Shown: positions 7,086 to 22,827 of the stretch, one piece after another
How positions within the stretch are numbered: position 1 is the stretch's first letter
How the letters are laid out: each line of letters opens with the position of its first letter
Assembly: GCA_000002435.2 (NCBI GenBank)
Contig: CM018793.1
DNA length: 64,000 nucleotides
From: Giardia intestinalis
Taxonomy: Eukaryota
Reading direction: 5' to 3' (one strand)
Notes under the pieces: model-generated
What the model saw: the letters and a program-made list of their open reading frames with translations, nothing else
Database searches by the model: none
What the model was told of the DNA's origin: nothing
Program-made: the position numbers and the translations under genes

Positions 7086-9944
7086 CTAATACTCTGCTGG
7101 ACACCATTCTTCACCGCGAAGATTTGCGATTTCTTTGTCGCGCGCGTGGAGCATCTCCTTCAAGCTACCTATTTCATTCTTCAGAACATTGATTACAGTC
7201 GCGTTTGCACTCGCCACGGCACTACGACCTCTAGGAGACAAGCTTGCTTGCGTGCGCTCGTCATTCTTCTCTGCTTCCTTCAGCTGCTGTGAGGCAAGCT
7301 TGGTTAACAGGGGGACGATCTGCTCCGATGTAACCGCCTCATCCTTTGGTGGTGTGTTCTCACAACTTCGGGCGCGACGAGGGCTTAAAGCGCCACTGGT
7401 TGGAGTCATAACACCGCTACGTATATCTGCAAGAGATCGACCCGAAAGCACCTTCTTGAGGGTCTCACCACTGGACTCCAAAGCAGTAATGACTGAGTTG
7501 TTTTCCTTCCCTTTTTCATCCATAGCAATCCGAAGTGACTTGAAGGACTGCTCCTGATTTTGAAGGGCAGCTATGAGGCACTGGATACGCCTGTCCCGTT
7601 CAGCTATATCTTTAGCCATCCCATCCACTGTCAGTGCCGTCTGCACACTCTCAGTCTTATTGTCCATAACTGTTCGAGAAGGTGCAGCTTTCGTTGCATG
7701 AACAAGAGCCGTTGCAGTACTACTTGAAGCCATAGAATGACAATCCATCACATAAGACATAGCTAGTTCTTCTGCAAGGATCTTCATTTGGTCGAGGTCC
7801 AACTCAAGTTTTCGAATTCGCCGCACAGCCTGAAGGGAGCCTTCTCTGCCACGCATACCAACAGGATTGTTAGATAAAGCCTCAATAATCTTATCTTTTT
7901 CTGAAAGCTGCTTATGGAGCGCTATAATTTCCTTTGCATTAAGGCCAGGGTCAATTGTAGAAGTTGGGCCAGAAAAGTCGATAGTAAATTCTTCCAAAAC
8001 ACACTTTAGGTCAGACAACTGTTTTTCTGCGACCAGGAGCTTGTCCTTGAGCCGCTGCTTATCCACGCGGAGAGCGTGAATTTCTGCTTTAGCATTAGAC
8101 CGATTCTTTTCCTCAATCTGATCCAAAAGAGACAGCGACGATGTTAGCTCGGCGAACTGGGCATCCTTCATCTGTGCTTGGGCTTGTAGGCGCGAGTTCT
8201 CCGATTCAAGTAGAGAGACCTTCTCCTTGAGGACCATTACCTCCGATGTCGAAGGCTCAGACCTTGCCATTTTTGAAGAGGCACTCTGTAGACTGGTAAT
8301 CATATCGTCTTTCCGCCGGACATCATCCGCTAACTGTGCAATCTTCCTCTGCAGATCTTCCACTAGTTCATCCCTCTCTTCATTGAGGCTCTTGACCTTT
8401 GCCTGGATATCATCAATCAGCTGTTTCTGTGCTTTGAGCTCAGTGTCTTGCTTGTCAACGATTTGCTGAAGAACCTCGGCACGTTGTGCGTGACGACTTT
8501 CCCCAGTCATTGATTTATGGGATTTTATTGCCATGTGCGCATTGACTTTATTGGCCGCAGCTAGTTGAGCTCGCAAGCTCTGGACTTCCTCCTTAAGTGA
8601 TTTGATCTCCTCCTTGAGTGCATCACAGTTAGCTGCGTTATCTTGATTCTGTGGCAGCGAAGAAAGTGCTGATGCTGGCACTCCCAATTGAGTTGGCCCT
8701 TGGTCAGATGACTTAAGGCTTAGAAGGTCTGTACGCAATTGCATGATTTCATCTTCAAGTCTCTCAACATACGACTCATCTGCAGTTCCTCGTAAATAGT
8801 TAGATGACTTCTGTTTGCTTGGTGAATTCAATTCAGATTGCAGCTTTCCAATGAGCTCATTTTTTTCTTCAATCTCCTCCTTGAGTAGTGCTATCTCTGT
8901 CGTAGCGACTTTATAGGAGAAGTCATCACCACCCTTTTGTCGAGCTTCAAGCTTCTTAACTTTTTCCCTGAGCGATTCTATTTCCTGGGCCATCTTTTGA
9001 GGAGATGAAGCACGAGCAGGAACGTCTGCAGGCTTTGTCTCCAAATGTAGCTTTAACTTCGTAATCTCAAGGTCCTTCATTCGAAGTGCATCGTCTGTAT
9101 CTCTTATCTTCCTTCTGAGCTCAGAAATTGTCTCCTCCAGCTCGGCACAACGCTTCTGCATAGCGCCATCCTCAGTGATGCCGCTCTTCAAGCGTGTCGA
9201 GGCACGGAAGAGGGCGCGGGATCGCCTTGCAGGGGCGATTCGAGCAGTTACAGAGTCGTCTTGGCTATTGAGAGGGTCAGAACACCCAGATAGCTCGTTG
9301 TGAAGCTGAAGCTCATCGTCATCTAACTCGCTAGCGGCATCTACGTGTGGGGCAGCACAAGCAGAGATTTGTGAATGCGTGCTGAGGCTTTGATACTCCT
9401 TGAGGTACTTGAGGATATCCGTGTTGGACTTTGCGCTAGCAACAGTGATCATAAAGGTAAGGTCATCCTGAGAGACAACGAAGTGCTGGAGCAGCGCTTT
9501 GAGACAGTCAAGGTTATTTGTTGCACAAGCGTGATCAGCGGCAGACAGATTTTGTCGATCATTAACCAGGCGGAAGTGCTTAATTATTGCATTGATGACT
9601 GAAACATGTCCATTCTGTGCGGCAACCATCAGAGCATCCTGACCATTCGGGAGTTTGCAGCCCTTCTCCAAGCCGACCAGAAGTTTACAAACGGCGGCGT
9701 GTCCGTTTCTGGCTGCAAGTATTAGTGCAGTTTCCCCAGCATTGTTGGTTAATTTCTGTTCGTAGCCCATGAGGATACGGATGATGTCGGTATTTCCTTG
9801 ACTGGCAGCAATCATAAGACCCGTGTAACCAGCGTCGTCCCGTGTGCCGTTATACTTGTGGGCGTATTGGCTTATCAAAGAACTGCTTTGAGCACGGACA
9901 GCGGCGATCCAATTCTGCGCCGTGGAAATGCCTATGCCACTCAT
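7086..9944 (-). CDS. ankyrin-repeat plus extended coiled-coil protein (21.1-family-like), 952 aa
   Basis: N-terminal about 200 aa of ANK repeats (TGLMIAASQGNTDIIRIL, ETALILAARNGHAAVCKLL, QDALMVAAQNGHVSVINAI). Remaining about 700 aa heptad-rich, charged (E/K/L/Q-rich), typical coiled coil. ATG 9944 with AT-rich upstream. Confidence 0.75.
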   Translation of the reverse strand: MSGIGISTAQNWIAAVRAQSSSLISQYAHKYNGTRDDAGYTGLMIAASQGNTDIIRILMGYEQKLTNNAGETALILAARNGHAAVCKLLVGLEKGCKLPNGQDALMVAAQNGHVSVINAIIKHFRLVNDRQNLSAADHACATNNLDCLKALLQHFVVSQDDLTFMITVASAKSNTDILKYLKEYQSLSTHSQISACAAPHVDAASELDDDELQLHNELSGCSDPLNSQDDSVTARIAPARRSRALFRASTRLKSGITEDGAMQKRCAELEETISELRRKIRDTDDALRMKDLEITKLKLHLETKPADVPARASSPQKMAQEIESLREKVKKLEARQKGGDDFSYKVATTEIALLKEEIEEKNELIGKLQSELNSPSKQKSSNYLRGTADESYVERLEDEIMQLRTDLLSLKSSDQGPTQLGVPASALSSLPQNQDNAANCDALKEEIKSLKEEVQSLRAQLAAANKVNAHMAIKSHKSMTGESRHAQRAEVLQQIVDKQDTELKAQKQLIDDIQAKVKSLNEERDELVEDLQRKIAQLADDVRRKDDMITSLQSASSKMARSEPSTSEVMVLKEKVSLLESENSRLQAQAQMKDAQFAELTSSLSLLDQIEEKNRSNAKAEIHALRVDKQRLKDKLLVAEKQLSDLKCVLEEFTIDFSGPTSTIDPGLNAKEIIALHKQLSEKDKIIEALSNNPVGMRGREGSLQAVRRIRKLELDLDQMKILAEELAMSYVMDCHSMASSSTATALVHATKAAPSRTVMDNKTESVQTALTVDGMAKDIAERDRRIQCLIAALQNQEQSFKSLRIAMDEKGKENNSVITALESSGETLKKVLSGRSLADIRSGVMTPTSGALSPRRARSCENTPPKDEAVTSEQIVPLLTKLASQQLKEAEKNDERTQASLSPRGRSAVASANATVINVLKNEIGSLKEMLHARDKEIANLRGEEWCPAEY

Positions 9945-9988
9945 CTTCCGACGAAAATGAAATTTTAGTCCACAAAAGATTTAGCTAT

Positions 9989-12900
9989 TTAATTTGCACC
10001 TCCGGAATCGGCCTCACCGTTGTCGATAAGTCTTACGTGAAGATCAAACTCATAAATTCTCGAAAAATCCAAACCAATCTCTACCCATATTTCATCAAAG
10101 ATTGTCACCCGGCGAACGGCTCGAACGGCTTGATCTGCAGCGAATACTACATCAATCCACATGTTATTTGGATCAACAGCAACAATTTCGTTTTGCTGCA
10201 GCCGTATCTCAGCGTCAACCCCATAATCTCTAAGAATGACCGATATCCTCCGGTCTCCTATCCGAAGTACACCCGCTCTTCCACGTAGCCATGAATATTG
10301 TGCACCTTTCGACTTGCTACCGTCTGTCCAGGGCATCTTAATAGCGCCACTCCACATCTGAATGACGTACAAGACACTGAAAATCTTATCTGCTTCGCTG
10401 GATGCCCTGTCAGCGCTCTCTTTCCTTGAATTGAGATTGGCACATATCTGGCTCATTACTTCTGTGTTGGAATGGGTTGCAGGGAGGTTAGCTCTTCCGT
10501 CTGCGGCCGCTAAGAGACGGTGGACAAGTATATCTGAGTACCGACGGATAGGTGATGTAAAGTGTGTGTAGATTGGTAAGGCTAAACCATAGTGATAGAA
10601 CTCATCTACGGTATACTCTGAGGAGACAAAATATTTGGCCAGCATCATGCATCGTGTGAGCATCTGCCTAACGATGGATATCTGCTTCATGTCGAGAGCA
10701 CCTTCCTTGATCGCGGTGTGTATGGACGCACTAAGTGTCTTATTTGTCGCTGTATCTAAATCAAAGTGAAAGATGTCCTTAATTTGCTTCTTAAGGACAC
10801 TGAACTGCTCCTCAGTGGGCTTAGGGTGTCTTCTCAGAATTGAAATGCTTGGATACTTCTCAAGTGTGTACTCAGCAGCCAGGCGATTGGCCAGAAGCAT
10901 GAACTCCTCTATCATAGACATTGTTGGGAGGGAAGCGTGCTCGTGGAGGCTTGTTGGTAGTTTTGTAATGGGGTCCAATGTAAACTCCACTGCAGGCGTT
11001 TCTAAAATTAATGCTCCGTTTCGAAGACGTTCCATTTTGAGTAGTTTGCTCAAGAACAATAGAAGCTTAAGGTTTTGTTGAATTTTCGCCACCTTTATCT
11101 GATTTTCAAGAATCTCATCGTTGATATGGTTTCTCAAAGCCTTAGACATATTCCTATAACCTGAGCCCTCATATGCTTCAAAAACACTTGCCGAATCCAT
11201 CTCACAAAGCCACTGGGCTTCGTGATACGCCAGCGAGGCACGTGACCGCACTATCGCTTGGGTAAACGAGTACTGCTTGACCACTAGACGAAGCTTTCGC
11301 TCTTCTGGCGAGAGTCCTGCTACCTTACTCATCTCCATGTCGAGCTCAAGATCTTCGACTCCTGCCTCCTCTCTGTATAATTCCAGCTCTATCAGCACAG
11401 ACATGCTTAACCTATCTACCCCAGACCTAAGTGAGCAGATATCCTCAGTCAGAATAGCTGGGAGCATATCAATCCGTCTGTCTGGAAAATATACACTGGT
11501 GCCTCGCTTACGTGCTTCAAGGTCGATTGCGCTCTCTGGGCGGACATAGAAGCTAACATCTGCTATATGTACACCAATTTCAAACGTCGTGGGTCCCAAG
11601 GTCTTAACGTGTAGGGCGTCATCTATGTCTTTACAAGACGGAGGATCAACAGAGATAGTATACTCATTAGTCAAGTTCAGACGGGCAGTGGGATATTTAC
11701 CACAGCTCTGAATATTTTGAGAAAGCGTTGTTTCAGGGGCGCTGGCCAACGACTCTTGCTGGGTTGGAGGTGTCACTGCAGACGCATAAACTCCGCTTGG
11801 AATGGAGTAAGATCCGGACGAGAACCCAAACGGTTTCAGCTCTAGCATAATGTCCTCATTTTCTTGCAGGTTAGCGTGGGGTATATCATACTCGAAAAGT
11901 ACTACATCAGCCTCGACATCTCTGTCACCGACGTCACCAAGAATAGAGCTCACGCGAGCAGTCGGCGACCTTTCTTCAGAGCCCCACGATTCGATAATAA
12001 ACAGGACTCTTTTCCCAATATAGTGGTCGATAGACGAAAGAGATCTAATGAAAAAGTCAGGGAGATTGCGTCGAAAAGGCCTGAGCATTGCCGTTTTCTC
12101 TGTGTGCGAGGAAAGCTCAGATTCCTGGTGATTAGGTGTTTCTTTTAAGTGCTTTAGTATAAAGGGAATCTTGACTGTCCCACAATATTCATGCCTGGGC
12201 CTGTTCATAATGGCTACGACAATGCCATATATCTTCCCTCCAGGAACAGTAGTGGATAGCTTGTCAATGTAGTCGCAAGCATCATAGCAGATGTGCTGAG
12301 GATCTACATGTGTTGAATCCTCTATGTCTTCCCAGGCCTCTTGCTCTATCAATGCAAGTGCAACCTGGTCCCCCGCAAGGCTTCTATTCAAATAAAAGGG
12401 ATTGCACAGTGTTACCTTCATATGTTTGTAGGAAGTTAAGACTTCCCCGCGCTTTCCACGACCCCAGACGGTCATCTTGCCTGAAAGAAGCTGTCTTTTT
12501 GTTATCATAAACTCTGCTTTCTCGGTAGATATGTGGGGCAAGTAACTGAACGAAGACTTGAGAGTTAGCTGCAAAGTGGAGTCACTGTACAACTCACGGA
12601 AGTCTTCATAAGAAAGATGGGGAGACCCCAAACTGGGCTCGATAAGAGAAATCGAAGGAGAAACGAACTGACAGTAGAATGCGTTGCTGAAGAAGAGCGA
12701 GATGTCAATGGCGACAGGATTCCATGGCTTACTATTCTTAGACAGCATATTATCAAGATTCCCTTTCAAGGCCGATGACTCTGATAGAACCGGAAACTCT
12801 AATTCCTGCTCGGAGCTCTTATTGCATAATACAACAACTGGGCAGGCGGTGGTAGCCTCAGGAGTTGCGTGCGAACTGTGGAGTAAGAAGTAGCGTTGAC

Positions 12901-13321
12901 TAGTCACTAGCGCGTCACAAAGCTGTTCCACCGTACGGCACACAGCGTGGCCATTGGATGTATCCTTGCACGATTTATCGGGAAAGCGAATGCACCCATC
13001 AAATTGAATGTAGCGCTGGAGAGCACGATAGCTGGTGGGATGCTGCTCTCTGATATAATCTATTACGGAATCCAGCACAACGACGGTAAACATCTTCCTT
13101 ATTGTGGTATGCTCAAAGAGAGTGGTGTGTAACAGTAACACAGCGGGAGTGGGGAGGAGAATGGCGCATCTTGGACGCCGGTCAGAAACATCTTTATTGC
13201 AAAGTGTGCAGCCCATAAGCCCACATGTTATATCATCTCGTATGACAACAGACTGCACTGATGGCTTACTTTTTAGGAACTGCGGGGTAGCAGAGACGTT
13301 GGGAACCCGCCGGATGGGCAT
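9989..13321 (-). CDS. DIS3/Rrp44-like 3'-5' exoribonuclease (RNase II/R family, RNB domain), 1110 aa
   Basis: RNB catalytic signature near C-terminal third: HYGLALPIYTHFTSPIRRYSDILVHRLL (cf. HFGLA...YTHFTSPIRRYxDxxVHR). DIDDALH motif (ISVDPPSCKDIDDALHV) upstream of it. ATG 13321 with AT-rich leader. Confidence 0.8.
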   Translation of the reverse strand: MPIRRVPNVSATPQFLKSKPSVQSVVIRDDITCGLMGCTLCNKDVSDRRPRCAILLPTPAVLLLHTTLFEHTTIRKMFTVVVLDSVIDYIREQHPTSYRALQRYIQFDGCIRFPDKSCKDTSNGHAVCRTVEQLCDALVTSQRYFLLHSSHATPEATTACPVVVLCNKSSEQELEFPVLSESSALKGNLDNMLSKNSKPWNPVAIDISLFFSNAFYCQFVSPSISLIEPSLGSPHLSYEDFRELYSDSTLQLTLKSSFSYLPHISTEKAEFMITKRQLLSGKMTVWGRGKRGEVLTSYKHMKVTLCNPFYLNRSLAGDQVALALIEQEAWEDIEDSTHVDPQHICYDACDYIDKLSTTVPGGKIYGIVVAIMNRPRHEYCGTVKIPFILKHLKETPNHQESELSSHTEKTAMLRPFRRNLPDFFIRSLSSIDHYIGKRVLFIIESWGSEERSPTARVSSILGDVGDRDVEADVVLFEYDIPHANLQENEDIMLELKPFGFSSGSYSIPSGVYASAVTPPTQQESLASAPETTLSQNIQSCGKYPTARLNLTNEYTISVDPPSCKDIDDALHVKTLGPTTFEIGVHIADVSFYVRPESAIDLEARKRGTSVYFPDRRIDMLPAILTEDICSLRSGVDRLSMSVLIELELYREEAGVEDLELDMEMSKVAGLSPEERKLRLVVKQYSFTQAIVRSRASLAYHEAQWLCEMDSASVFEAYEGSGYRNMSKALRNHINDEILENQIKVAKIQQNLKLLLFLSKLLKMERLRNGALILETPAVEFTLDPITKLPTSLHEHASLPTMSMIEEFMLLANRLAAEYTLEKYPSISILRRHPKPTEEQFSVLKKQIKDIFHFDLDTATNKTLSASIHTAIKEGALDMKQISIVRQMLTRCMMLAKYFVSSEYTVDEFYHYGLALPIYTHFTSPIRRYSDILVHRLLAAADGRANLPATHSNTEVMSQICANLNSRKESADRASSEADKIFSVLYVIQMWSGAIKMPWTDGSKSKGAQYSWLRGRAGVLRIGDRRISVILRDYGVDAEIRLQQNEIVAVDPNNMWIDVVFAADQAVRAVRRVTIFDEIWVEIGLDFSRIYEFDLHVRLIDNGEADSGGAN

Positions 13322-13384
13322 AGGAATTTGTTACAATTAAATACCCCAGGTATTTGTTGCAGTGGTTCCAGAAGTTATTCGTCG

Positions 13385-13741
13385 CTATTGTTTACTTTCT
13401 GGCTTATAAATCTCTTCAAAGAGACTCACTAGCGTCTGCGTTATGAGTTTGTTTGTGGACCTCTCTGCCCAAACAAGTTCCTCTATCTTAGAATTGAGAA
13501 TAATCTGGATATTGTACTTGGCAGAAAGCATTTCTATTAGTCTCTCGCATGTACATGGACCATCGTCCAGCAAGGTTACGCCCACCGCTGTTCCGGGTAC
13601 ATCCAAACACGGAACCAAAATAGAGAGGGATCCAAGCGCAAGGGGGTCACTGCTTATAGATAAGACACAAGATTTGGAGTGAGCTATCACAACCACTTTT
13701 ATGATTCCAACATCTGTCTCCAATACTTTCTCTATCAGCAT
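13385..13741 (-). CDS. small hypothetical protein (118 aa), possibly roadblock/longin-like alpha-beta fold
   Basis: True ATG at 13741 directly after tataatcatcttaaa. No motif recognised. Weak by-eye resemblance of VGIIKVVVIAHSKSCVLSI to roadblock/LC7 GVQGIIVVNTEGIPIKS. Confidence 0.4.
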   Translation of the reverse strand: MLIEKVLETDVGIIKVVVIAHSKSCVLSISSDPLALGSLSILVPCLDVPGTAVGVTLLDDGPCTCERLIEMLSAKYNIQIILNSKIEELVWAERSTNKLITQTLVSLFEEIYKPESKQ

Positions 13742-15968
13742 TTTAAGATGATTATAGAATGATCCGGGAACCCCTCCTGCAACGAAAGCTTAGCCATCCT
13801 ATTTATCCAGGGGGCATTAGAAATCAAGAGATACATTTAACTGATCATTGCGTGTATTGAACAACTCATACTAATTTCTTTGTCCCCAGTAGCTGACCCT
13901 AATCATCCCAGTAGAGCCCCACATCAGGTATGGATCTTGCGTAGTGCTGAGCCATATCCCCTATGTCAATAGATGCTGCTTCGGTGGCTCCAATTTGAAG
14001 GAGGGAGGCCCTTGTCACTGTATAGATTTGTGTCAAGTGAAAATTATCGTGGGCTTCTTGGAAGACCCGACGGCTCGCTATATTCTGCCATCTCTATGCT
14101 TGCCATGGCTACTGGAAATACCGATGCATGTGTGCAACTCATAAGAGTGAGCTCTGCTTGATTATTTGCTCAAACTGTCCAACCCATGATAATAGGACTG
14201 CTACCAGAGGAGACCATGAACGAAACCCTAGTACTCACGAGGGCACTCTCAGATGAAGTGGTTTGTATGCGCTCTTTAGCCCTCGGAAGCTCAGTGCACA
14301 TGGTTACTCATCCTTTGACACCAGACTCGCCCACAAGACGCACTGGCCACACTATAACACCCTTGGTGGTGAGCCCAGATAAGGGTGCGTGCGCTGATAG
14401 TATTGTATGTCAAAAGACCTTCCTAGTAGCAATGTGCTGGTCACGGTCAAGAAGACATTACCATTTTGATGCATCGAGGGTTGATCGATTCGTTAAGACA
14501 CTGTCGGTATTCTACTCGTATAATCGGGACCCATCTCATCTACAAAGGTTCTACTTGTGTGCACGCTCACCCGGAAACCAGAATCGAGACCTGGCAGGCG
14601 TCACTCGCCCTGCAGCGATTTGGTACGACAGCAAGGGTGGACCTCGGATTGACGGGGGATGCTTCCCGGCGAGTCCCAGGTGCACTGCAGGTGGCGATCT
14701 CAACGTGGATGAGTGCCCAGTCGGTGAAGTCATGGCTCACAGGGAGGCGCCTGGACTACCCACAAGGATTGGGGAGATCCAAGACTGCAGTGTCCGTTGG
14801 TAAGACACACAGTAGGAACGCCTTGTGAGATAGACCAGAAGTCCTCCGCCCAGTCGTGGCTAGTACCTGCAGCTAGTAGCCCCGTGGGCTCGTCCCGGAC
14901 GCTCTTGGTCAAACGGATAGCCGATGCGGTCGTGTCAGAGGTCAGTCTCCGCCTCCACATGGCAGAACAGTGGGAACAGTCGTCTATAGGCAGGGACCTT
15001 CTCTTGAACATAATGCAGCTAACACTGTGCCACAGTACCCATGACTGACTTGGTGGGCTACACTATGGCAATACTTCGCAGAGCCCCAGTTCGCAAGTCA
15101 TAAGGCGATTGCCAATTCAGACCGAGACATCCTTTGTGTACGCTGGGCCTATCTGCAGTATAACGAGCAGCGTATCTGTTTGACCAAGAGGCTGCCGGCG
15201 TGGATATGCACTGCCGTATGCCCAGGCCTATAGTTGAATGACAGACCGTTCAGGTGGGGGATCAGCGATTGCCTTGACGTGCAAGAAGAGCCTCCATGCG
15301 ACATCGTTCCACAACGGTATGCGTAGGATCTGCGGCGAATGGCACCACCACCAAAGCGGACGAGGCGCTGTGCTATCGAGAAAGGAGGCTCATATCTTCT
15401 TATGACCAAAGAGCCTAGCAACAACATTTACACAGCAATGCATACTATCGCAATGGACTTTCCTTGTGGGCAGTGTTAAAATGTTCATGTGCCATGTCGT
15501 GAGGCCATGGCGTATTTTGCATCTCCTGCGCCAACGTCATCGCTGCCTATTAGTGCAGAACCTGGCTATCTTGGAAGGCCTCCTCAAGTTCGTCTATGCC
15601 TTTCTCGAAGAAGGTCCTTGGTAGTGGAGCTCGCTTTATGAGTGCTGTCTACCTCCTAGCAGAGCAAATTGACGGATGATGCACATGCGGGCTATACACT
15701 TTTCCGAAGCTTGTAGGACACGGTGTTATGGCGGCTTTAACGGTACACAAGCCACGCCCGCCTGCAACAGATGGCCTCGATAGGATGCTCTTGAGTAGGG
15801 CACCAGTCAACTAGTCTAGTCCATGGGCACCGCTGAAAAGCACCAGTGTCTTCTTGTTCTACACTGCGGTGTGCTCACAGCGATACGCTGAAGGATGCGT
15901 GCGGCCCGGTGGAGGCGGCCTCTACTGCTATCTGATTGCCCGTTAGTGTGAGCGTGATTCGACGGGCA
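13742..15968. other. 2.2-kb ORF-poor block upstream of the VSP gene (candidate decayed gene and/or non-coding RNA locus)
   Basis: Only short ORFs, in all three plus-strand frames in succession (14186 frame 2, 14466 frame 0, 14797 frame 1), plus overlapping minus-strand ORFs. No AT-rich initiator, no recognisable protein motif. Unusually long for a genome whose other spacers here are 10-200 bp. Confidence 0.3.
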
Positions 15969-17246
15969 ATGTTGTACTTGGCAGGTTTAGCATTCGCTTA
16001 CTTGGCGCTTGCCGATCCAAAATCGTGCACCAACTCTCAAAATTGTGCATCTGGAGATAACTGTCTAGATGTCAATATGAATGGTTCTCCTACAGAGGTT
16101 TGCACAAAATGCGAGCCAAACAACGTCCCGATCGACGGGGCGTGCAAGCCGGCCGCAGACAACACGAACAGCTGCGTAACCTCGGATAGCGGGGCCGGCG
16201 GGGTTTGCGCGTCGTGCCAGGGGAGCACCTACCTCTACAAGGGCGGGTGCTACGCCGCGTGCCCTCAGGGAACACCAAACTCTGAGACTAACACATGCGA
16301 TGGAGTCCCCGCCCCTGATTGCAATCTCGCCAACTGCGAGGTGTGCTCGGAGGACAAGCAGAAGTGCACAAAGTGCCAAAGTAACTACTTCCTCACTCCA
16401 GAGAAGAACGCTTGCTTGGCGTCTTGTCCGGCCGGGTCGTACGCGGTTGGGCAAACGTGCGCGCCCTGCGACCCCTCCTGTGCGGAGTGCAGCGGGGCCG
16501 GCGCTTCCAAGTGCACGGCCTGTCCCGCCGGGAAGATGCTGAGGTACGCCGACGAGAGCAAGCTTAATGAGGGCGGCCAGTGCGTGGAGCAATGCGTGGA
16601 GGGCCCGGAGTGCGAGACGTGCGGCCTAACAATTGGAGGTACCAAGTACTGCTCGAAGTGCAAGGGGAACAACGTGCCGCTCAATGGCGTCTGCACAAGC
16701 AATGCGGCCAGGACTCGGTTCTGCACCACTGTCGCTAACGGTGCTTGCACGGTCTGCGCCGCCGGATACTTCATCCAGGAGGGCGGATGCTACAAGACTG
16801 ACAGGCTCCCCGGGAAAAGCATCTGCACAACGCCCACTGGGGATGGAAAATGCCAAACGTGTGCGAATGGCTTGACAGCTGTCTCGAACATGTGTCCATT
16901 ATGCGACTCCACTTGTGCGACATGCACCGTGGCCAATCAACCCGATAAGTGCAGCACGTGTCCACCTGGCCGTTACTTGGACGCCAGTAAAGCATGCAAA
17001 CTGTGTACAGAGACAAGCGGTAGCATCCAGGGCGTCGCTAACTGCGCGAGCTGCGCTCCTCCAACTGGTAATAGTGGTTCTGTCATCTGCTACGTCAAGA
17101 CGGATGGCACTGACAACGGCGGAAGCACGAATAAGAGCGGCCTCAGCACAGGCGCTATAGCGGGCATCTCCGTCACGGCGGTTGTCGTCGTGGCTGGCCT
17201 TGTGAGCTTCCTCTGCTGGTGGTTCCTCTGTAGGGGCAAGGCGTGA
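15969..17246 (+). CDS. variant-specific surface protein (VSP), 425 aa
   Basis: Track start 15936 is TTG; first ATG 15969 gives signal peptide MLYLAGLAFAYLALA. About 16 CXXC motifs, GGCY motifs (KGGCYAACP, EGGCYKTD), C-terminal TM helix and invariant tail FLCWWFLCRGKA-stop. Confidence 0.9.
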   Translation: MLYLAGLAFAYLALADPKSCTNSQNCASGDNCLDVNMNGSPTEVCTKCEPNNVPIDGACKPAADNTNSCVTSDSGAGGVCASCQGSTYLYKGGCYAACPQGTPNSETNTCDGVPAPDCNLANCEVCSEDKQKCTKCQSNYFLTPEKNACLASCPAGSYAVGQTCAPCDPSCAECSGAGASKCTACPAGKMLRYADESKLNEGGQCVEQCVEGPECETCGLTIGGTKYCSKCKGNNVPLNGVCTSNAARTRFCTTVANGACTVCAAGYFIQEGGCYKTDRLPGKSICTTPTGDGKCQTCANGLTAVSNMCPLCDSTCATCTVANQPDKCSTCPPGRYLDASKACKLCTETSGSIQGVANCASCAPPTGNSGSVICYVKTDGTDNGGSTNKSGLSTGAIAGISVTAVVVVAGLVSFLCWWFLCRGKA

Positions 17247-17260
17247 CTTAGGTAGTAAAC
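17246..17260 (+). promoter_or_regulatory. VSP-type extended polyadenylation signal ACTTAGGTAGTAAAC (matches ACTYAGRTAGTRAAY), overlapping the TGA stop
   Basis: Read directly: ...AAGGCGTGACTTAGGTAGTAAACGTG. The core AGTAAAC matches the general Giardia AGTRAAY signal. Confidence 0.8.
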
Positions 17261-17906
17261 GTGCCCACATACCACAGTATACATCATAAATGGTGTCCAG
17301 GGCTGCCTCTGGTACACTGACGTGCCTCCTGGCGAGAGTAGCGGGGTCCCGCTCCCGAGCTACGGGCTGTGCTGGAACTGGGGGCACTATTTGTAGTGGT
17401 TGGAAAGTAAGCCCTGCAGGGCCGACTTTAGTCGTGAAAGCATCGTATACATCAGCAGTGGCTGAACACTCAGATTTTTTGGTATTACGGCAAAGTCATC
17501 AATGCCTGAAAAATCTACGAGGTTACTTCTATCGACATCTATGCTTCTCTATCGTTCCTCCTAGAAAAGAGCACTCTTGAGAATCAGCAAAACCATATTC
17601 TAAACTAATGAGATTGTTTCTTATTCAGCTTAGTTGATGAGCCAGCTTTATAAACCTGAAAGTATAATGTAGTTTGTGAGTAAATACCAATGTTGGGCGT
17701 TTGCATTGTGGATTCTACAAGTTTAGCATTAAGATCACTGCCTTATATATTCTTGCTGTTAAAGATTCTCAATTAAAGCTTTAACATTCTGTCATTGCCG
17801 CCGTCAGTATTCGCGTCTATCTCCATAACGATATCGACGAAGACCTGGCCCACAACATACCATTTGGCAGCTATTGATCATGATCTAAAAATTCAAATCT
17901 CTCTTC

Positions 17907-20276
17907 ATGTCTCTCTCTGATTGGTTCCAAGGGATTATTATGAACGATTTCGATACGGTAAACAAGCTACTGGCTCAGTACAAATGTTCTGTAGACGCGC
18001 AAGGAGATACGGGACTCATGGTAGCTACGCAAGCAGGCCTTTTGGGAATGGTGCGCTTGCTAGCACCCTTTGAGAGCGGATCTCGCTCATCTTCCGGCTG
18101 TACAGCTCTTATGATAGCATGCATGTCGAATATGCCTGAAATAGTCGAGGTACTCCTTCCCCTAGAAAAGGACTTTAGGCTCTCTGATGGTCGGGACGCA
18201 CTAATGCTGGCCGCTAGTAGCAATTCTGGCGATGTACTAGACATACTCATGCCGAACTTCAGTTTATGCCGCGACAATAATAGCCTATCTGCCCTAGACT
18301 ATGCGGGATATGAGGGTCATCTTTTCATAGTCATGAAGCTCGTGCACTACTTTCGCCCATCCTCCGCTGATCTATCAATTGCACGGGACCTAGCATCTGA
18401 AGCAGGTAGAAGCTCTGTGGTTGCTTATCTAGACTCTCTAGACGCCAATAGCAGTTCCAACCCTATCCAGGATGCATCCAGTGGAGGATTTACTAACGAG
18501 TCAGACATATTAGTCGACAAGAAAGATGGTATGGTCGTTACCACTTCGACCAACGGAGAAGACCGCATTTCTCTTCCACATCCAGATGATCCTTTTACTT
18601 CGGATATGACTACCATCAACCCAACTGCAGAGAAGCACATTGCACTTTTGGAATCAGAAAACAAAGCGCTTCGTTTAAAACTGGAGGCCATAACAGCGAG
18701 CACGGACGAAGAGCGATTGCTGGCTTTTAACAAAATGGAAAACGAGATAGCTTTTTATATGGGCGAGGTTGAAATGCTACAGAATAGCCTCAAGGAGAAA
18801 GATTTAGCCGATTCTGCGAGTATTGAATCTGAAAGCATAGAGTCTTTACAACAGCTCCTTATTGGCGCTAAAGAGGAGCTAGATAAAGCAAGGGAAGATC
18901 TCAATACCAGCTTGGAATCACAGAGTGAGTTGACTGGTCTTTTATTGATTAAAGAGGAAGAAGGAAAGAAGCTAGCGACAGAGATAGATTCTCTAAAGCG
19001 TGAATTGAAGGCCTCGAGGGAAGAGCTTGAAAAGACGGAACTAGAGTTACAAAATACTAAGCAACGATTAAGGGTGTGCGAAGGTGAGGCCGCGATAGGA
19101 AAGCAGTTTGATAACACAATGGTCTTGACAAAATCACTCTATGGCCACGACTTGCGTGAGCAGTTGGCGGTACCTTTACGCAATGTAATACCCACAGACA
19201 TAGATCTCCGATTTATCAAAGGCACCGCGGCGCAATTCAAGGCAAATCCATCAGAGTTAAGGCATCTTATATCTAACTTCAACATTCTCAAGAAGGCCTA
19301 CGTTTCTTTGTTGAGAGACTATGATAAGGTAGAACCGTCTCCCCAACGGTCCGCAACAGGGCTTTGTAAAGGGCATGGATCCTTACGCAATAAAAGTGCT
19401 AGGGCAAGGGACTCTATGGATACACTCATCTCGTCCATAAATACTTCCATAAGGCGGTCAAGTTCCAGAACGGCTCCGTTATCGCGGTCATCGTCGTCAC
19501 AAGTTATACAGATGGCATCTACTCAAGGCGCTGATATTGAACGGGCTCAGTCTAGCTTGGCTGATAACCGCCAAAGGAGCATTGTTTCAGGAACACAAAT
19601 AGGAAGATCAGTTACTGCTAGAAATCGAGCCACAGAGGTTTCGTTAGTGACAGAGGAGATGATGGCTGAATTGTCTAATCAGGAGAACACGCCACTCATG
19701 AGGGCGTTTGTAGAGGGAAATCTGGATGGCGTATTAAATATGCTATCACACGTCGGTAAGCAGCGCAGCGATGGAACAACCGCCCTAATGCTCGCGGCCC
19801 TATTTAATCGCATTAGCGCAATCAAGTATGTTGTCAAAAAGGAGGCACGAATGAAGCGTGTTGATGGAGCCACTGCTCTACATATTGCCCTTCAAAAGGG
19901 GTATTATACCATTGCGGATCTTTTAACAAAATATGAAGGAATTGACGTCAGCGAATATAGTACAGAGGGCAACCGAAAAACTGAGCTCATGTGTGCCGCA
20001 GAAGAAAATGACCTGGTGAAGTTGTGGTGTCTGCGCCCGTTACAAGAACGCTTACAAGATCAGAATGGGAAGACAGCCTTAATGTATGCTCTTGAAAAGG
20101 GGCACCTACACTGTGTGTACCTTTTATTATCCAGTGAAGCAAAGATTCGAGATAGTCAAGGAAACAATATAGTGTCTTATTGCTCCAAGATGAGTCATAC
20201 TTTGCCCGAATCTCTTCGCCAAGAACTTACGTTTATGGCAACGCGCTACTGCAATGAGCAGTATTACATGGAGTAG
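17907..20276 (+). CDS. ankyrin - coiled-coil - ankyrin protein (21.1-family-like), 789 aa
   Basis: ATG 17907 after AT-rich tctaaaaattcaaatctctcttc. N-terminal ANK repeats (DTGLMVATQAGLLGMVRLL, CTALMIACMSNMPEIVEVLL, RDALMLAASSNSGDVLDIL). Central heptad region (ENKALRLKLEA...ELEKTELELQNTKQRL). C-terminal ANK repeats (TTALMLAALFNRISAIKYVV, ATALHIALQKGYYTIADLL, KTALMYALEKGHLHCVYLLL). Confidence 0.75.
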   Translation: MSLSDWFQGIIMNDFDTVNKLLAQYKCSVDAQGDTGLMVATQAGLLGMVRLLAPFESGSRSSSGCTALMIACMSNMPEIVEVLLPLEKDFRLSDGRDALMLAASSNSGDVLDILMPNFSLCRDNNSLSALDYAGYEGHLFIVMKLVHYFRPSSADLSIARDLASEAGRSSVVAYLDSLDANSSSNPIQDASSGGFTNESDILVDKKDGMVVTTSTNGEDRISLPHPDDPFTSDMTTINPTAEKHIALLESENKALRLKLEAITASTDEERLLAFNKMENEIAFYMGEVEMLQNSLKEKDLADSASIESESIESLQQLLIGAKEELDKAREDLNTSLESQSELTGLLLIKEEEGKKLATEIDSLKRELKASREELEKTELELQNTKQRLRVCEGEAAIGKQFDNTMVLTKSLYGHDLREQLAVPLRNVIPTDIDLRFIKGTAAQFKANPSELRHLISNFNILKKAYVSLLRDYDKVEPSPQRSATGLCKGHGSLRNKSARARDSMDTLISSINTSIRRSSSRTAPLSRSSSSQVIQMASTQGADIERAQSSLADNRQRSIVSGTQIGRSVTARNRATEVSLVTEEMMAELSNQENTPLMRAFVEGNLDGVLNMLSHVGKQRSDGTTALMLAALFNRISAIKYVVKKEARMKRVDGATALHIALQKGYYTIADLLTKYEGIDVSEYSTEGNRKTELMCAAEENDLVKLWCLRPLQERLQDQNGKTALMYALEKGHLHCVYLLLSSEAKIRDSQGNNIVSYCSKMSHTLPESLRQELTFMATRYCNEQYYME

Positions 20277-21624
20277 CTTTGCTCATCGCGGCCTTGAGAT
20301 CAAGGACGGCTGACCGTGTGGTAAGTCCTGCATACCGTTTGTACTCATCACTGTTTATGCCGAGAGCCTCTAACCCCGCTATGTGCTGTCTTTCTAAGAA
20401 GTGCTTATCAAATACCTTTTGCCCGTAGTAAAATAACTCTCCACATACTTCGCACAAAAATCGACGATGTAACCCGTGGGCATCGTACTGCCACTTGGGT
20501 ATTTCCTCACCAGTGTTAGGATCATATATCTGTTTCTTAACGGTTATTCTTCCTGCCACGTCACTTACATTGTTTTGCTTAACAACACCCGCCGGTAAAA
20601 GGGATAGAATGGGTACGTATGCATCTCTGCTAACCTGGAGACTAAGCGAAACTGTCAGCTTATAAGATAAGTCAATTAGCTTCTCAGTAAAGTTATTGAT
20701 CCTGTCTTCCTCGTAACACTCTATAAAGGGTTGCGACACGCTTTGTGTGGAGGTATCCCCTAGGGTATTGTAGTTGACCGTCAAAGACATTTCTCTCTTC
20801 AGGAAGTTCAGTAAAAGTAAAGTCTTATGTAAAATAGCAAATGCCTCATAGTGCTCATGATTGGTCTTCTGTGTGCTGTGTCGAACTGCTGCCCTGTGCC
20901 TTCGTCCCATCATGTGTGCCTGCATATCTGCTTCTGTGTGCACTTCGACGTGACACGTACTACAGTAAACCTGCTGCTCTATAAGTGTCTCAACGTACTG
21001 CGCATATTGTTGGTCTAACTTCTGATGCTCATCCAGAGTCAAAACAGTGCCTGTGACGGACTTCCTCATATAGAATAGCTGTGGATACTTTATTTTGTAG
21101 AAATGAAGAAGATGATTGTGCAATAAAGTGATTAGTCGCTTGTTCGTAGTACTCAGTATAATATCATGGATATCAGAAACGAAGTCGGTGTAGCGCAGTG
21201 GATCTTTGGAAGACGTGCTGGCGTTTTTTAACGCAGAGTATTGTTGATAAGCTTTGGATAAATCGATGACTCTATAAAACATTGTTTGAGACGCCCCAAG
21301 CAGGATAACCCGGAGCAGAGCCTTGATCTCTCGTTTCAGAAAAGAGGTAACACTGCTAGTTAGAGGTCCAGGTTCCCCGCTCTGGCTGCCATGGCTCTTC
21401 CAGAACAACCGGCAGTTCTCAGCAAGTGTGTTAGTTCCCTGCTGCGTTATTAATCTGTGCATTGTTTGATACTGCACGTAAGCTATGTGTGCTAGATAGG
21501 CTAGAAGATTTTCCTTTATAAGCTGTTCTTCATACGACTCCGAAGAATCCATCGACACTAGCCCAAAGGCCCGCATTGACGTGCAGTAGACTAGCATTGC
21601 AAAGTGGAACTCTTCTGCCGACAT
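20233..21624 (-). CDS. SF3A3: splicing factor 3a subunit 3 (SF3a60/Prp9)-like protein with matrin/U1-type C2H2 zinc fingers, 463 aa
   Basis: C-terminal block IPKWQYDAHGLHRRFLCEVCGELFYYGQKVFDKHFLERQHIAGLEALGI lines up with human SF3A3 [49 protein letters not shown]. Internal U1-type finger CSTCHVEVHTEADMQAHMMGRRHR. ATG 21624 with 180-bp AT-rich leader. Confidence 0.65.
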   Translation of the reverse strand: MSAEEFHFAMLVYCTSMRAFGLVSMDSSESYEEQLIKENLLAYLAHIAYVQYQTMHRLITQQGTNTLAENCRLFWKSHGSQSGEPGPLTSSVTSFLKREIKALLRVILLGASQTMFYRVIDLSKAYQQYSALKNASTSSKDPLRYTDFVSDIHDIILSTTNKRLITLLHNHLLHFYKIKYPQLFYMRKSVTGTVLTLDEHQKLDQQYAQYVETLIEQQVYCSTCHVEVHTEADMQAHMMGRRHRAAVRHSTQKTNHEHYEAFAILHKTLLLLNFLKREMSLTVNYNTLGDTSTQSVSQPFIECYEEDRINNFTEKLIDLSYKLTVSLSLQVSRDAYVPILSLLPAGVVKQNNVSDVAGRITVKKQIYDPNTGEEIPKWQYDAHGLHRRFLCEVCGELFYYGQKVFDKHFLERQHIAGLEALGINSDEYKRYAGLTTRSAVLDLKAAMSKATPCNTAHCSSALP

Positions 21625-21829
21625 CTACCTCCTGCTTGGTTTTTGTTTTCATTTATGATAATCGCATATTTACAAATGTCACATATGAATTTGAGTAGTG
21701 CAACTTATAACATATAAGGGGAAAGAGACTTACTGTGGTAATTTTCTCGTCTATGGTAAATTTCAAGAGTTTTGAGATTGTATTTAATAAAGAATAGACA
21801 ACAAGGATGTAGTCAAATGGTGGCCACAG

Positions 21830-22810
21830 GGAAACTTAGATGCTATGTTGCTGGGCCCACCTGCAGACGTGGTCCAGAGGCCTTATGAGTGATCCTCGCT
21901 CAATTCCTGGCCATGTCTGAAGATGAAGGCTGGTTGTAGATACCATACTAGGGGTTCTTCTCTAGTAGTGCATCCAAAGCCAGGTGCTTTCCCTAGTCAT
22001 TCTGTGCAGCGTCCGCGTCGCTCAGTCTAGGATTCAGCTTACTCATTGGCATATGTAGCTTGTAAGTTGTATCTCTCCTTGGTCTATCCCCCCGATGAGG
22101 GAGGGCCCCAGCAGTCGATGACCCTGGACCGACGCCTCGGTGGACCGACGCATCACCCCAAGTGTGCTGTGCAGATGGACCAGCCCACACATCACTGAGC
22201 CAGACGCACTGCACAGGGTGAGCGTCGACACGGTCTCGTGCTGGATGACGGACCACCTGCAAGAGCGCACTGCGATCCATGAGCAGAGGGCCGGGCCTCT
22301 TCTCCGACACAACGCATGGGAGTACTCCATCGGCATCTACGCACGCGTACCACAACCTCAAGATAGAGGGACACGGGGAGCGCACCCTCCGATCATACTC
22401 GGGACTGATGACTCGCTTCATGAGGAGACGAAGAGGCACCCCGAGGAACGGGGTAGACACCCGGGGTCATAGCGTATCCCATCTTCGTCATGGAGTACCA
22501 GGGTCCCGGGCCACGTGGAGGCCAGATCGCCGCAACAGACGCAAGGCCCTGAATAGCAGGTGCCCACCAGTGCCAGACGATAGTTGACCCCGATGGGCCA
22601 GAGGAAGGGAGGAACCCTAGAGGTAACGTGAGGAGCAGCGGCTTCCGGGGGACGGGGCACAGAGTCTTCTCCTGTCGGGATCGAGGGCACCTGACTCTCG
22701 GATTTCTGATCCCAGCCGTGTATGGGCGAAAGGCTTGCCTAAGGTAGCAGTGGCTTGCACGGGAGATCACTCAGGTAGTAGGTGACAACCCCACCCTGGT
22801 GAAACGAAGA
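21830..22810. other. GC-rich (about 60-65% by eye) 1-kb orphan block with no coherent ORF (candidate ncRNA or decayed VSP-type fragment)
   Basis: Lies between SF3A3 promoter and the stop of the next minus-strand gene. Many overlapping short ORFs on both strands, typical of GC-rich non-coding sequence. Ends with ACTCAGGTAGTAGGT (22769..22783), a 12/15 match to the VSP extended poly(A) signal. Confidence 0.3.
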
Positions 22811-22827
22811 GTAAATTAGGTGTACAT

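Follow-up and report, generated by a model that had tools for sequence, protein, structure and literature searches.

The DNA analysed here, a window of 64,000 nucleotides, comes from Giardia duodenalis WB (assemblage A1). The flanking proteins match exactly (KAE8305217-19), and their genes all lie on one 4.02-Mb chromosome record. The preliminary description singled out a gene-poor block of 2.2 kb immediately before a VSP gene. This block, 2227 bp from 13742 to 15968, is indeed the largest gap in the window and has no convincing gene, but it is not free of ORFs. The features of the locus are as follows.

13385-13741, minus strand: 118-aa gene GL50803_0019364, an exact match to the WB protein
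13742-13800, minus strand: AT-rich initiator and promoter region of GL50803_0019364 (the minus strand reads ...tataatcatcttaaaATG)
13742-15014, no strand assigned: segment I, a single-copy, locus-specific, non-coding spacer of assemblage A only, with neutral-rate evolution
14186-14803, plus strand: hypothetical ORF of 205 aa, GL50803_003847 (KAE8305217.1), from the reference annotation
15015-15359, no strand assigned: segment II, distal portion of the older 5' flank of the VSP, present in L022 and L021 and not in L020 (related VSP loci, see below)
15360-15479, no strand assigned: putative 5' recombination junction, over which WB, the DH syntenic locus and the DH paralogue are 87-98% alike
15480-15968, plus strand: segment III, the proximal non-coding flank of the VSP cassette, matched by L020
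15967-15973, plus strand: VSP initiator (Kozak-like), CAatgTT; consensus PyAatgTT (PMC2996952; bioRxiv 10.1101/2022.03.07.483299)
15969-17246, plus strand: intact VSP of 425 aa (KAE8305218.1 / A8BBX7) with a signal peptide, CXXC motifs and a CRGKA tail
17246-17261, plus strand: extended polyadenylation signal of the VSP, ACTTAGGTAGTAAACG, overlapping the TGA stop (motif in PMC3091692)
17907-20276: Ankyrin repeat protein 1 (KAE8305219.1), the next gene after the VSP

The block stands out less sharply from its surroundings than had been thought. The other spacers of the window had been given, incorrectly, as 10-270 bp; the one that follows the VSP measures 660 bp (17247-17906). In 21625-22827 the sole ORF has 142 codons and no coding signal, with gaps of 368 bp and 406 bp on either side. 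A likely remnant of a non-LTR retrotransposon lies in this other part of the window, at 22137-22795.

Of the ORFs that start with ATG and have 100 codons or more, just one falls in 13742-15968, the 205-codon ORF at 14186-14803 (here ORF205). It is annotated inside the block as GL50803_003847, and therefore the reference annotation does not treat the block as ORF-free either. The short ORFs at 14186, 14466 and 14797 had been read as a succession through frames 2, 0 and 1. They are overlapping ORFs in a patch of 54-60% GC and do not form a frameshift series. TTG is the start codon of the last two (14466 and 14797). The former is wholly nested in ORF205 in a different frame, so that these two overlap almost completely, and none of the three has a coding score. 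The GC content of the block as a whole is 51.7%, against a window average of 48.2%.

The assembly is sound at this position. There are no Ns in the block, two short-read contigs (L001 and L002) span 8216-15440 at 100% and 99.93% identity, ORF205 appears in the protein index for 145 blocks of the assembly collection, and the assembly of isolate DH is collinear with the window over 9000-15858 and again from 17130. Because of these observations we conclude that there is no assembly gap or misjoin, a possibility that had been named at the outset. None of the tandem or dispersed repeats within the window touches the block. A scan for bacterial-type promoters and terminators gave hits at chance level, and such signals are not relevant to Giardia.

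The VSP gene itself has the start and end signals of its family. It had been noted that an AT-rich initiator is missing at the VSP ATG. This is correct as far as it goes and is normal for VSPs, but the VSP-specific CAatgTT is present. This motif has been found in 135 of 136 VSPs, regardless of the label "VSP with INR" (bioRxiv 10.1101/2022.03.07.483299). All five related VSP loci retain both the initiator (CAatgTT in four, TAatgTT in one) and the extended poly(A) signal. The closest VSP relatives have the same N-terminus, MLYLAGLAFA.... In the P15 relatives, the annotated start codon probably lies 33 codons upstream of the true one.

Segments of the region upstream of the VSP gene

Comparison with related loci divides the block into segments of different history. 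The DH (A2) syntenic locus (L022) has the order kinase, Ank, Dis3, 118-aa gene, a 2.18-kb gap, VSP, Ank. Across segment I (13742-15014), 51 of 1250 aligned sites differ between WB and L022 (4.1%), and there are two indels, of 1 bp and 22 bp. The neighbouring genes of WB and DH have CDS identities of 99.2-99.4%, with dS of 0.026-0.049 and dN of 0.002-0.004. Since the divergence of segment I is comparable to this dS, segment I evolves at the neutral rate. Short-read unitigs cross it unbroken, and it has no similarity to L005-L009, L020, L021 or L023. The contigs L005-L009, which their run accessions would place in the dog assemblages C/D (PMC6939161), have homology that ends at 13748-13750; they stop 115-617 bp past the 118-aa gene and have nothing in common with the block.

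Segment II (15015-15359) is shared more widely. It is 98.3% identical to L022 and 27-53% identical to the DH paralogue L020, values in the latter case that amount to no homology. Homology to L021, a locus of P15 (assemblage E), starts at 15015 (position 5277 of L021 and 9073 of L022). WB and DH differ at 6 positions in the 345 bp of segment II, where simple arithmetic from dS gives an expectation of about 13. This shortfall runs against neutral drift, and it could reflect weak constraint or chance.

The remaining 609 bp before the ATG (15360-15968) have a different closest relative. They are 93.9% identical to the DH paralogue L020, with zero indels, and 63.9% identical to L022. The match to L020 covers 15360-17261 at about 90%, and thus includes the VSP gene. 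L020 adjoins Maf1, Mob1 and MutS. The P15 locus L021 matches 15015-17260 at 72.8%, and a second P15 paralogue (L023) has only the last 240-290 bp or so before the ATG in common with WB. Long gaps precede these VSPs too: L020 has its own gene-free gap of 2.0 kb, and the gaps are 2.2 kb at L022 (1.8 kb to a doubtful annotated ORF of 58 aa) and 0.8-1.9 kb at L021.

The flank that is linked to the VSP has diverged about as fast as silent sites. Over 15015-15968 WB and L021 are 68.7% identical, and the resulting Jukes-Cantor distance (JC d=0.405) is close to the published genome-wide mean dS of 0.44 between WB and P15 (PMC3091692). The alignment contains 16 indels (1, 1, 17, 2, 1, 2, 5, 12, 1, 1, 2, 2, 1, 1, 11 and 14), just one of which has a length divisible by three. 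The adjoining VSP coding sequence is 76.9% identical to that of P15, and its indels are 9, 6, 3 and 3. No island in the flank is conserved above chance: the longest stretch without a mismatch has 16 nt, a length that shuffled sequences match or surpass in 22% of cases (P=0.22).

VSP cassettes at the syntenic WB and DH loci

VSP loci had been described in advance as recombinogenic, and this holds here: the syntenic loci of WB and DH bear different VSP cassettes, with junctions that can be mapped. In sliding windows, identity of WB to the DH syntenic locus is 95-100% up to 15479 and 12-78% thereafter; identity to L022 picks up again at 17130, at 98%. Identity to the DH paralogue L020 follows the opposite course, with 27-53% before 15360 and 85-100% from there on. 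Because the sliding identities switch at 15360-15479, these alignments show that the WB cassette, at about 15480-17130, is of a VSP lineage other than the one at the same DH locus. As mapped in this way, the switch points are the shared upstream flank at 15360-15479 and the conserved VSP 3' end at about 17130. The pattern suggests that a cassette was exchanged, and that the 5' junction lies within 15360-15479.

The direction of the exchange can be approached through P15. At the DH syntenic locus, both the VSP signal peptide and the proximal flank look like those of the two P15 copies (compare MLYFAALALIGLASANPPAP with MLYLTALVLIGLASADPPAP), and identity over 9935-10312 of L022 is 87.8%. Because of this resemblance, which is to two P15 copies only, the comparison suggests that WB has the derived state. 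The short-read contigs that come from the left all end at 15433/15440, and those from the right begin at about 16836-17097. Breaks of this kind are the signature of sequence that is repeated elsewhere in the genome, and they imply a second copy of the flank in WB. The contig index has no record of the exact VSP or of the WB paralogue (P0016).

We postulate that gene conversion or cassette exchange among VSP paralogues would use the proximal flank and the conserved 3' end as homology arms. In trypanosomes, VSG gene conversion is bounded by upstream repeats and by the conserved 3' end of the gene. The arrangement in Giardia is analogous in that the exchanged segment is bordered by a tract of non-coding homology on its upstream side and by the conserved 3' end of an antigen gene on the other. 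However, the Giardia locus has neither a repeat array nor an expression site. In addition, VSP switching in Giardia is held to be epigenetic or post-transcriptional and not recombinational, and the exchange proposed here would be an evolutionary event between sub-assemblages rather than a switching mechanism.

Gene, relic and RNA readings of the block

GL50803_003847 is most likely not a real gene. ORF205 lacks the marks of one: its frame is not kept and is not under purifying selection in the sister lineage, and it has neither Giardia codon usage nor an AT-rich initiator. We used a codon log-odds score trained on 16 long genes of the window, with leave-one-out scoring for real genes. Real genes score 0.115-0.233 bits/codon, and small real genes (118-205 codons) 0.116-0.233. 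In contrast, ORF205 scores 0.022 bits/codon, all other ORFs of the block score at most 0.005, and 240-nt windows across the block stay at or below 0.02 in all six frames. In DH (A2), Trp85 of ORF205 is replaced by a stop. This stop is not an assembly error, because the identical 84-aa form recurs on 13 further independent contigs. The dN of ORF205 between WB and DH is 0.038, about 10 times the 0.002-0.004 of neighbouring genes, and its omega of 0.44 falls within the 0.34-1.11 spanned by the other five frames. No clear poly(A) signal follows its stop codon. A word-indexed protein search with ORF205 returned only itself, and an exhaustive HMMER search against 1.84 billion representatives returned itself and four spurious matches; the latter (P0134-P0137) are artefacts, tandem-repeat proteins aligned in 6-8 stretches. 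No genuine homologue was found beyond assemblage A Giardia, and the gene and protein identifiers of GL50803_003847 are unmentioned in the literature and supplements searched.

The length of ORF205 calls for comment. In 2000 composition-preserving shuffles of the block, with local composition kept, 205 codons were reached in 11 and the longest ORF was shorter in 1989 (median longest, 94). Together with the retention of the model in the curated 2020 annotation and the indexing of an exact 195-aa product in 145 blocks of the assembly collection, this favours a genuine young protein-coding gene that is specific to A1, in which case the block would be two ordinary intergenic regions around it. We consider such a gene very unlikely, given the low codon score, the stop at codon 85 in A2 isolates, the elevated dN with an unexceptional omega, the missing initiator and poly(A) signal, and the lack of any homologue; moreover, even a real ORF205 would leave 444 bp and 1165 bp of spacer on its two sides. 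The same unusual length is the sole hint that ORF205 is an unrecognisable relic. Segment I would then be what is left of a gene that has decayed and lost its frame, whether a VSP, another family member or a retroelement. Pseudogenes and remnants of reverse transcriptase are known from the neighbourhoods of VSPs (PMC7000408; bioRxiv 10.1101/2022.03.07.483299), and at the related P15 locus an RVT_1 ORF precedes the VSP by 1.9 kb. Nevertheless, an eroded remnant is unlikely. A six-frame Pfam search of the block found no credible domain (a 7tm_3 match, with E 0.06 and 13 bits, is far under the 33.5-bit cutoff and was rejected), no frame is CXXC-rich and the codon-usage signal is absent throughout. 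Queries with the P15 retroelement ORFs in tblastn gave no match on segment I; the sole match near the block (33 aa, 14989-15087, E 0.001) straddles the start of homology at 15015. Neither Pfam nor tblastn found remains of a reverse transcriptase, zinc finger or endonuclease of the GilM/GilT/GilD type in the block. The preliminary description had offered two readings, a frameshift-decayed gene or non-coding sequence, and had proposed TBLASTX as a way to a decayed parent. When run against the five related loci and the remainder of the window, tblastx detected nothing similar at the translated level. With no detectable parent or domain homology, no homologue, and no consecutive frame segments joined across frameshifts, the reading as a frameshift-decayed gene is not supported. 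Codon usage, Pfam, the homologue search, the A2 stop and dN all agree with non-coding sequence.

The other suggestion made at the outset, that the block hosts an unannotated ncRNA or a regulatory region for VSP silencing, fared no better on the RNA side. We take it here in a broader form, in which the block or its VSP-linked flank is an ncRNA or a cis-regulatory element for VSP silencing or switching. In its favour, a flank of 0.6-0.95 kb goes with the VSP subfamily at four other loci in two further (sub-)assemblages, and transfection data suggest that VSP 5' regions are unlike housekeeping promoters (bioRxiv 10.1101/2022.03.07.483299). RNAalifold on the five related flanks also proposed a structure in which both partners of nine pairs have changed. 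However, these flanks represent two clades, and both the structure and the pair counts derive from the same five-sequence alignment. The structure was rejected, since its consensus energy of -30.4 is no better than that of column shuffles (-33.2 +/- 4.3; z=+0.65). Searches against Rfam of 13000-17000 at E<=1, and of the whole window at gathering score, gave no match, and a tRNA scan was also empty. No stable fold is present: MFE z-scores for 120-nt windows on both strands run from -1.58 to +1.89, with a mean of +0.23, and do not differ from those of a coding control. The neutral divergence of the flank and the lack of conserved islands in it also argue against an element of this kind, and we regard it as very unlikely. 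A regulatory role that is independent of sequence conservation is possible.

The block among known VSP flanks

Published surveys have described what lies upstream of VSP genes. An extended noncoding region upstream is typical of VSPs (PMC2996952, Adam et al. 2010), and VSP surroundings are usually gene-poor (PMC7000408, Xu et al. 2020). The intergenic length at VSPs has a median of 1280 nt and a mean of 2131 nt, compared with 79 and 392 nt genome-wide (bioRxiv 10.1101/2022.03.07.483299). The 2 kb upstream of VSPs have a mean GC of 53.9%, groups of VSPs have common upstream sequence, and adjacent hypothetical genes are unexpressed (Rodriguez-Walker et al. 2022, bioRxiv 10.1101/2022.03.07.483299). 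The block resembles these gene-poor flanks (PMC2996952; PMC7000408; bioRxiv 10.1101/2022.03.07.483299) in every respect. It lies directly 5' of an intact VSP with PyAatgTT, its 2.2 kb is near the published mean and much longer than ordinary intergenic regions, and its GC is above the window average. Its proximal part is common to a VSP subgroup, the adjacent hypothetical ORF has no coding signal and, as judged on sequence, there is no functional protein-coding gene inside. Nothing essential sets it apart from the published flanks, although it can also be divided into a locus-specific and a cassette-linked part.

The cassette-linked part recalls duplicated VSPs. Adam et al. reported VSPs with near-identical upstream regions, and the flanks of duplicated VSPs diverge abruptly 139-729 bp from the coding region (PMC2996952). 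The close match of the WB flank to the DH paralogue, with its abrupt boundary near 15360, is similar to this, and the contig breaks at 15433/15440 are expected if WB carries a second copy. Unlike the paired duplicated VSPs, this VSP belongs to no inverted identical pair within the window. GL50803_003847, for its part, resembles the over-annotated small ORFs of Giardia WB (PMC7000408) in having no domain or homologue, a codon usage that is non-genic and a stop in the sister sub-assemblage. It differs from them in that it outlived the 2020 clean-up and is longer than most.

We conclude that the block is very probably an extended non-coding upstream region of the kind typical of a stand-alone VSP, and contains no gene, recognisable pseudogene or RNA gene. 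We envisage three layers. The first, 13742-15014, would be locus-specific DNA of assemblage A that drifts neutrally, in which ORF205 may be open in the WB type (A1) by chance or as an unrecognisable relic, and was then annotated as hypothetical. The second, 15015-15359, would be the distal part of an older VSP flank. The third, 15360-15968, would be a flank that belongs to the VSP cassette and moves with the VSP on recombination. Apart from the initiator CAatgTT, the flank would have no sequence-specific function, and the long spacer may hold the VSP apart from the constitutive, bidirectional promoters of its neighbours. It is quite unlikely that the flank instead steers VSP exchange or silencing, as a functional homology arm or by giving rise to regulatory transcripts, or that ORF205 is a de novo A1 gene.

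The block is thus an ordinary feature that is already described in published VSP surveys. What is added here is its split into a neutral local spacer and a cassette-linked flank, and a map of the junctions of the A1/A2 exchange. The block has little significance beyond annotation: the gene model GL50803_003847 is probably spurious, and the VSP, which is labelled simply "VSP", nonetheless has the initiator. A modest by-product is a clear map of how one VSP cassette was replaced by another at a locus that is syntenic in A1 and A2, with the 5' junction about 490-610 bp upstream of the ATG and the 3' junction in the conserved 3' end. The AI and AII VSP repertoires evolved largely independently (PMC4570179, Ankarklev et al. 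2015), and this locus would be an example of how a VSP repertoire diverges while the surrounding genome remains 99% identical.

A probable retroelement remnant downstream of the VSP gene

The window contains a second gene-poor stretch at 21625-22827, within which positions 22137-22795 are of special note. A 142-codon ORF on the minus strand (21993-22421) shows no coding signal, with a codon-usage score of -0.016. At a related VSP locus of P15 (assemblage E), an ORF with zinc-finger and RVT_1 retrotransposon domains is followed by an ORF of 290 amino acids, and the latter matches the plus strand of the window at 22137-22454 (131 amino acids, 32% identity, E = 6e-8). At the nucleotide level, the homology reaches 22795. 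The segment 22137-22795 is probably the remnant of a non-LTR retroelement that has been truncated at its 5' end.

Two convergent genes separate the VSP gene from this stretch, one on the plus strand (17907-20276) and one on the minus strand (20233-21624); their 3' ends share 44 bp (20233-20276). The 660-bp spacer immediately 3' of the VSP gene (17247-17906) lies inside a tract that begins at 17130 and is 98% identical to strain DH (A2), and the GC content falls to about 37.5% across 17400-18000.

Annotation and start codons

In DH, a gene of 58 amino acids is annotated on the minus strand (8024-8200 of the syntenic locus, L022), within the block orthologous to that upstream of the WB VSP gene. 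This gene is likely to be one more spurious small ORF. In the DH paralogue P0015 (L020, 10001-11503), a segment of about 75 amino acids is tandemly duplicated within the protein, such that CTKCEATHVPIDGACQ...YAACPQGT is present twice; the WB VSP does not have this duplication. The reference label of the WB gene (15969-17246) is 'VSP' and not 'VSP with INR', despite the presence of CAatgTT.

For both VSPs of P15, the annotated protein begins with MCAMWLAAS..., 33 codons upstream of MLYL (L021, 6164-6262; L023, 6001-6099). Because the conserved CAatgTT and the signal peptide of both proteins begin at MLYL, the true start codons probably lie further downstream than annotated.

Arrangement of the locus across assemblages

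In all of the non-A assemblies retrieved (L005-L009), the short-read contigs stop 115-617 bp past the 118-amino-acid gene, and beyond that gene they carry AT-rich sequence that has no relation to the WB block. Thus, a break in either synteny or assembly recurs at the same point across assemblages.

The sequence directly 3' of one P15 VSP (L021, 7704-7866) is 70% identical to window 21849-22006, which in WB is located 4.6 kb downstream of the VSP gene, with two genes in between. This match hints that the WB and P15 loci may derive from one ancestral VSP neighbourhood that has since been rearranged.
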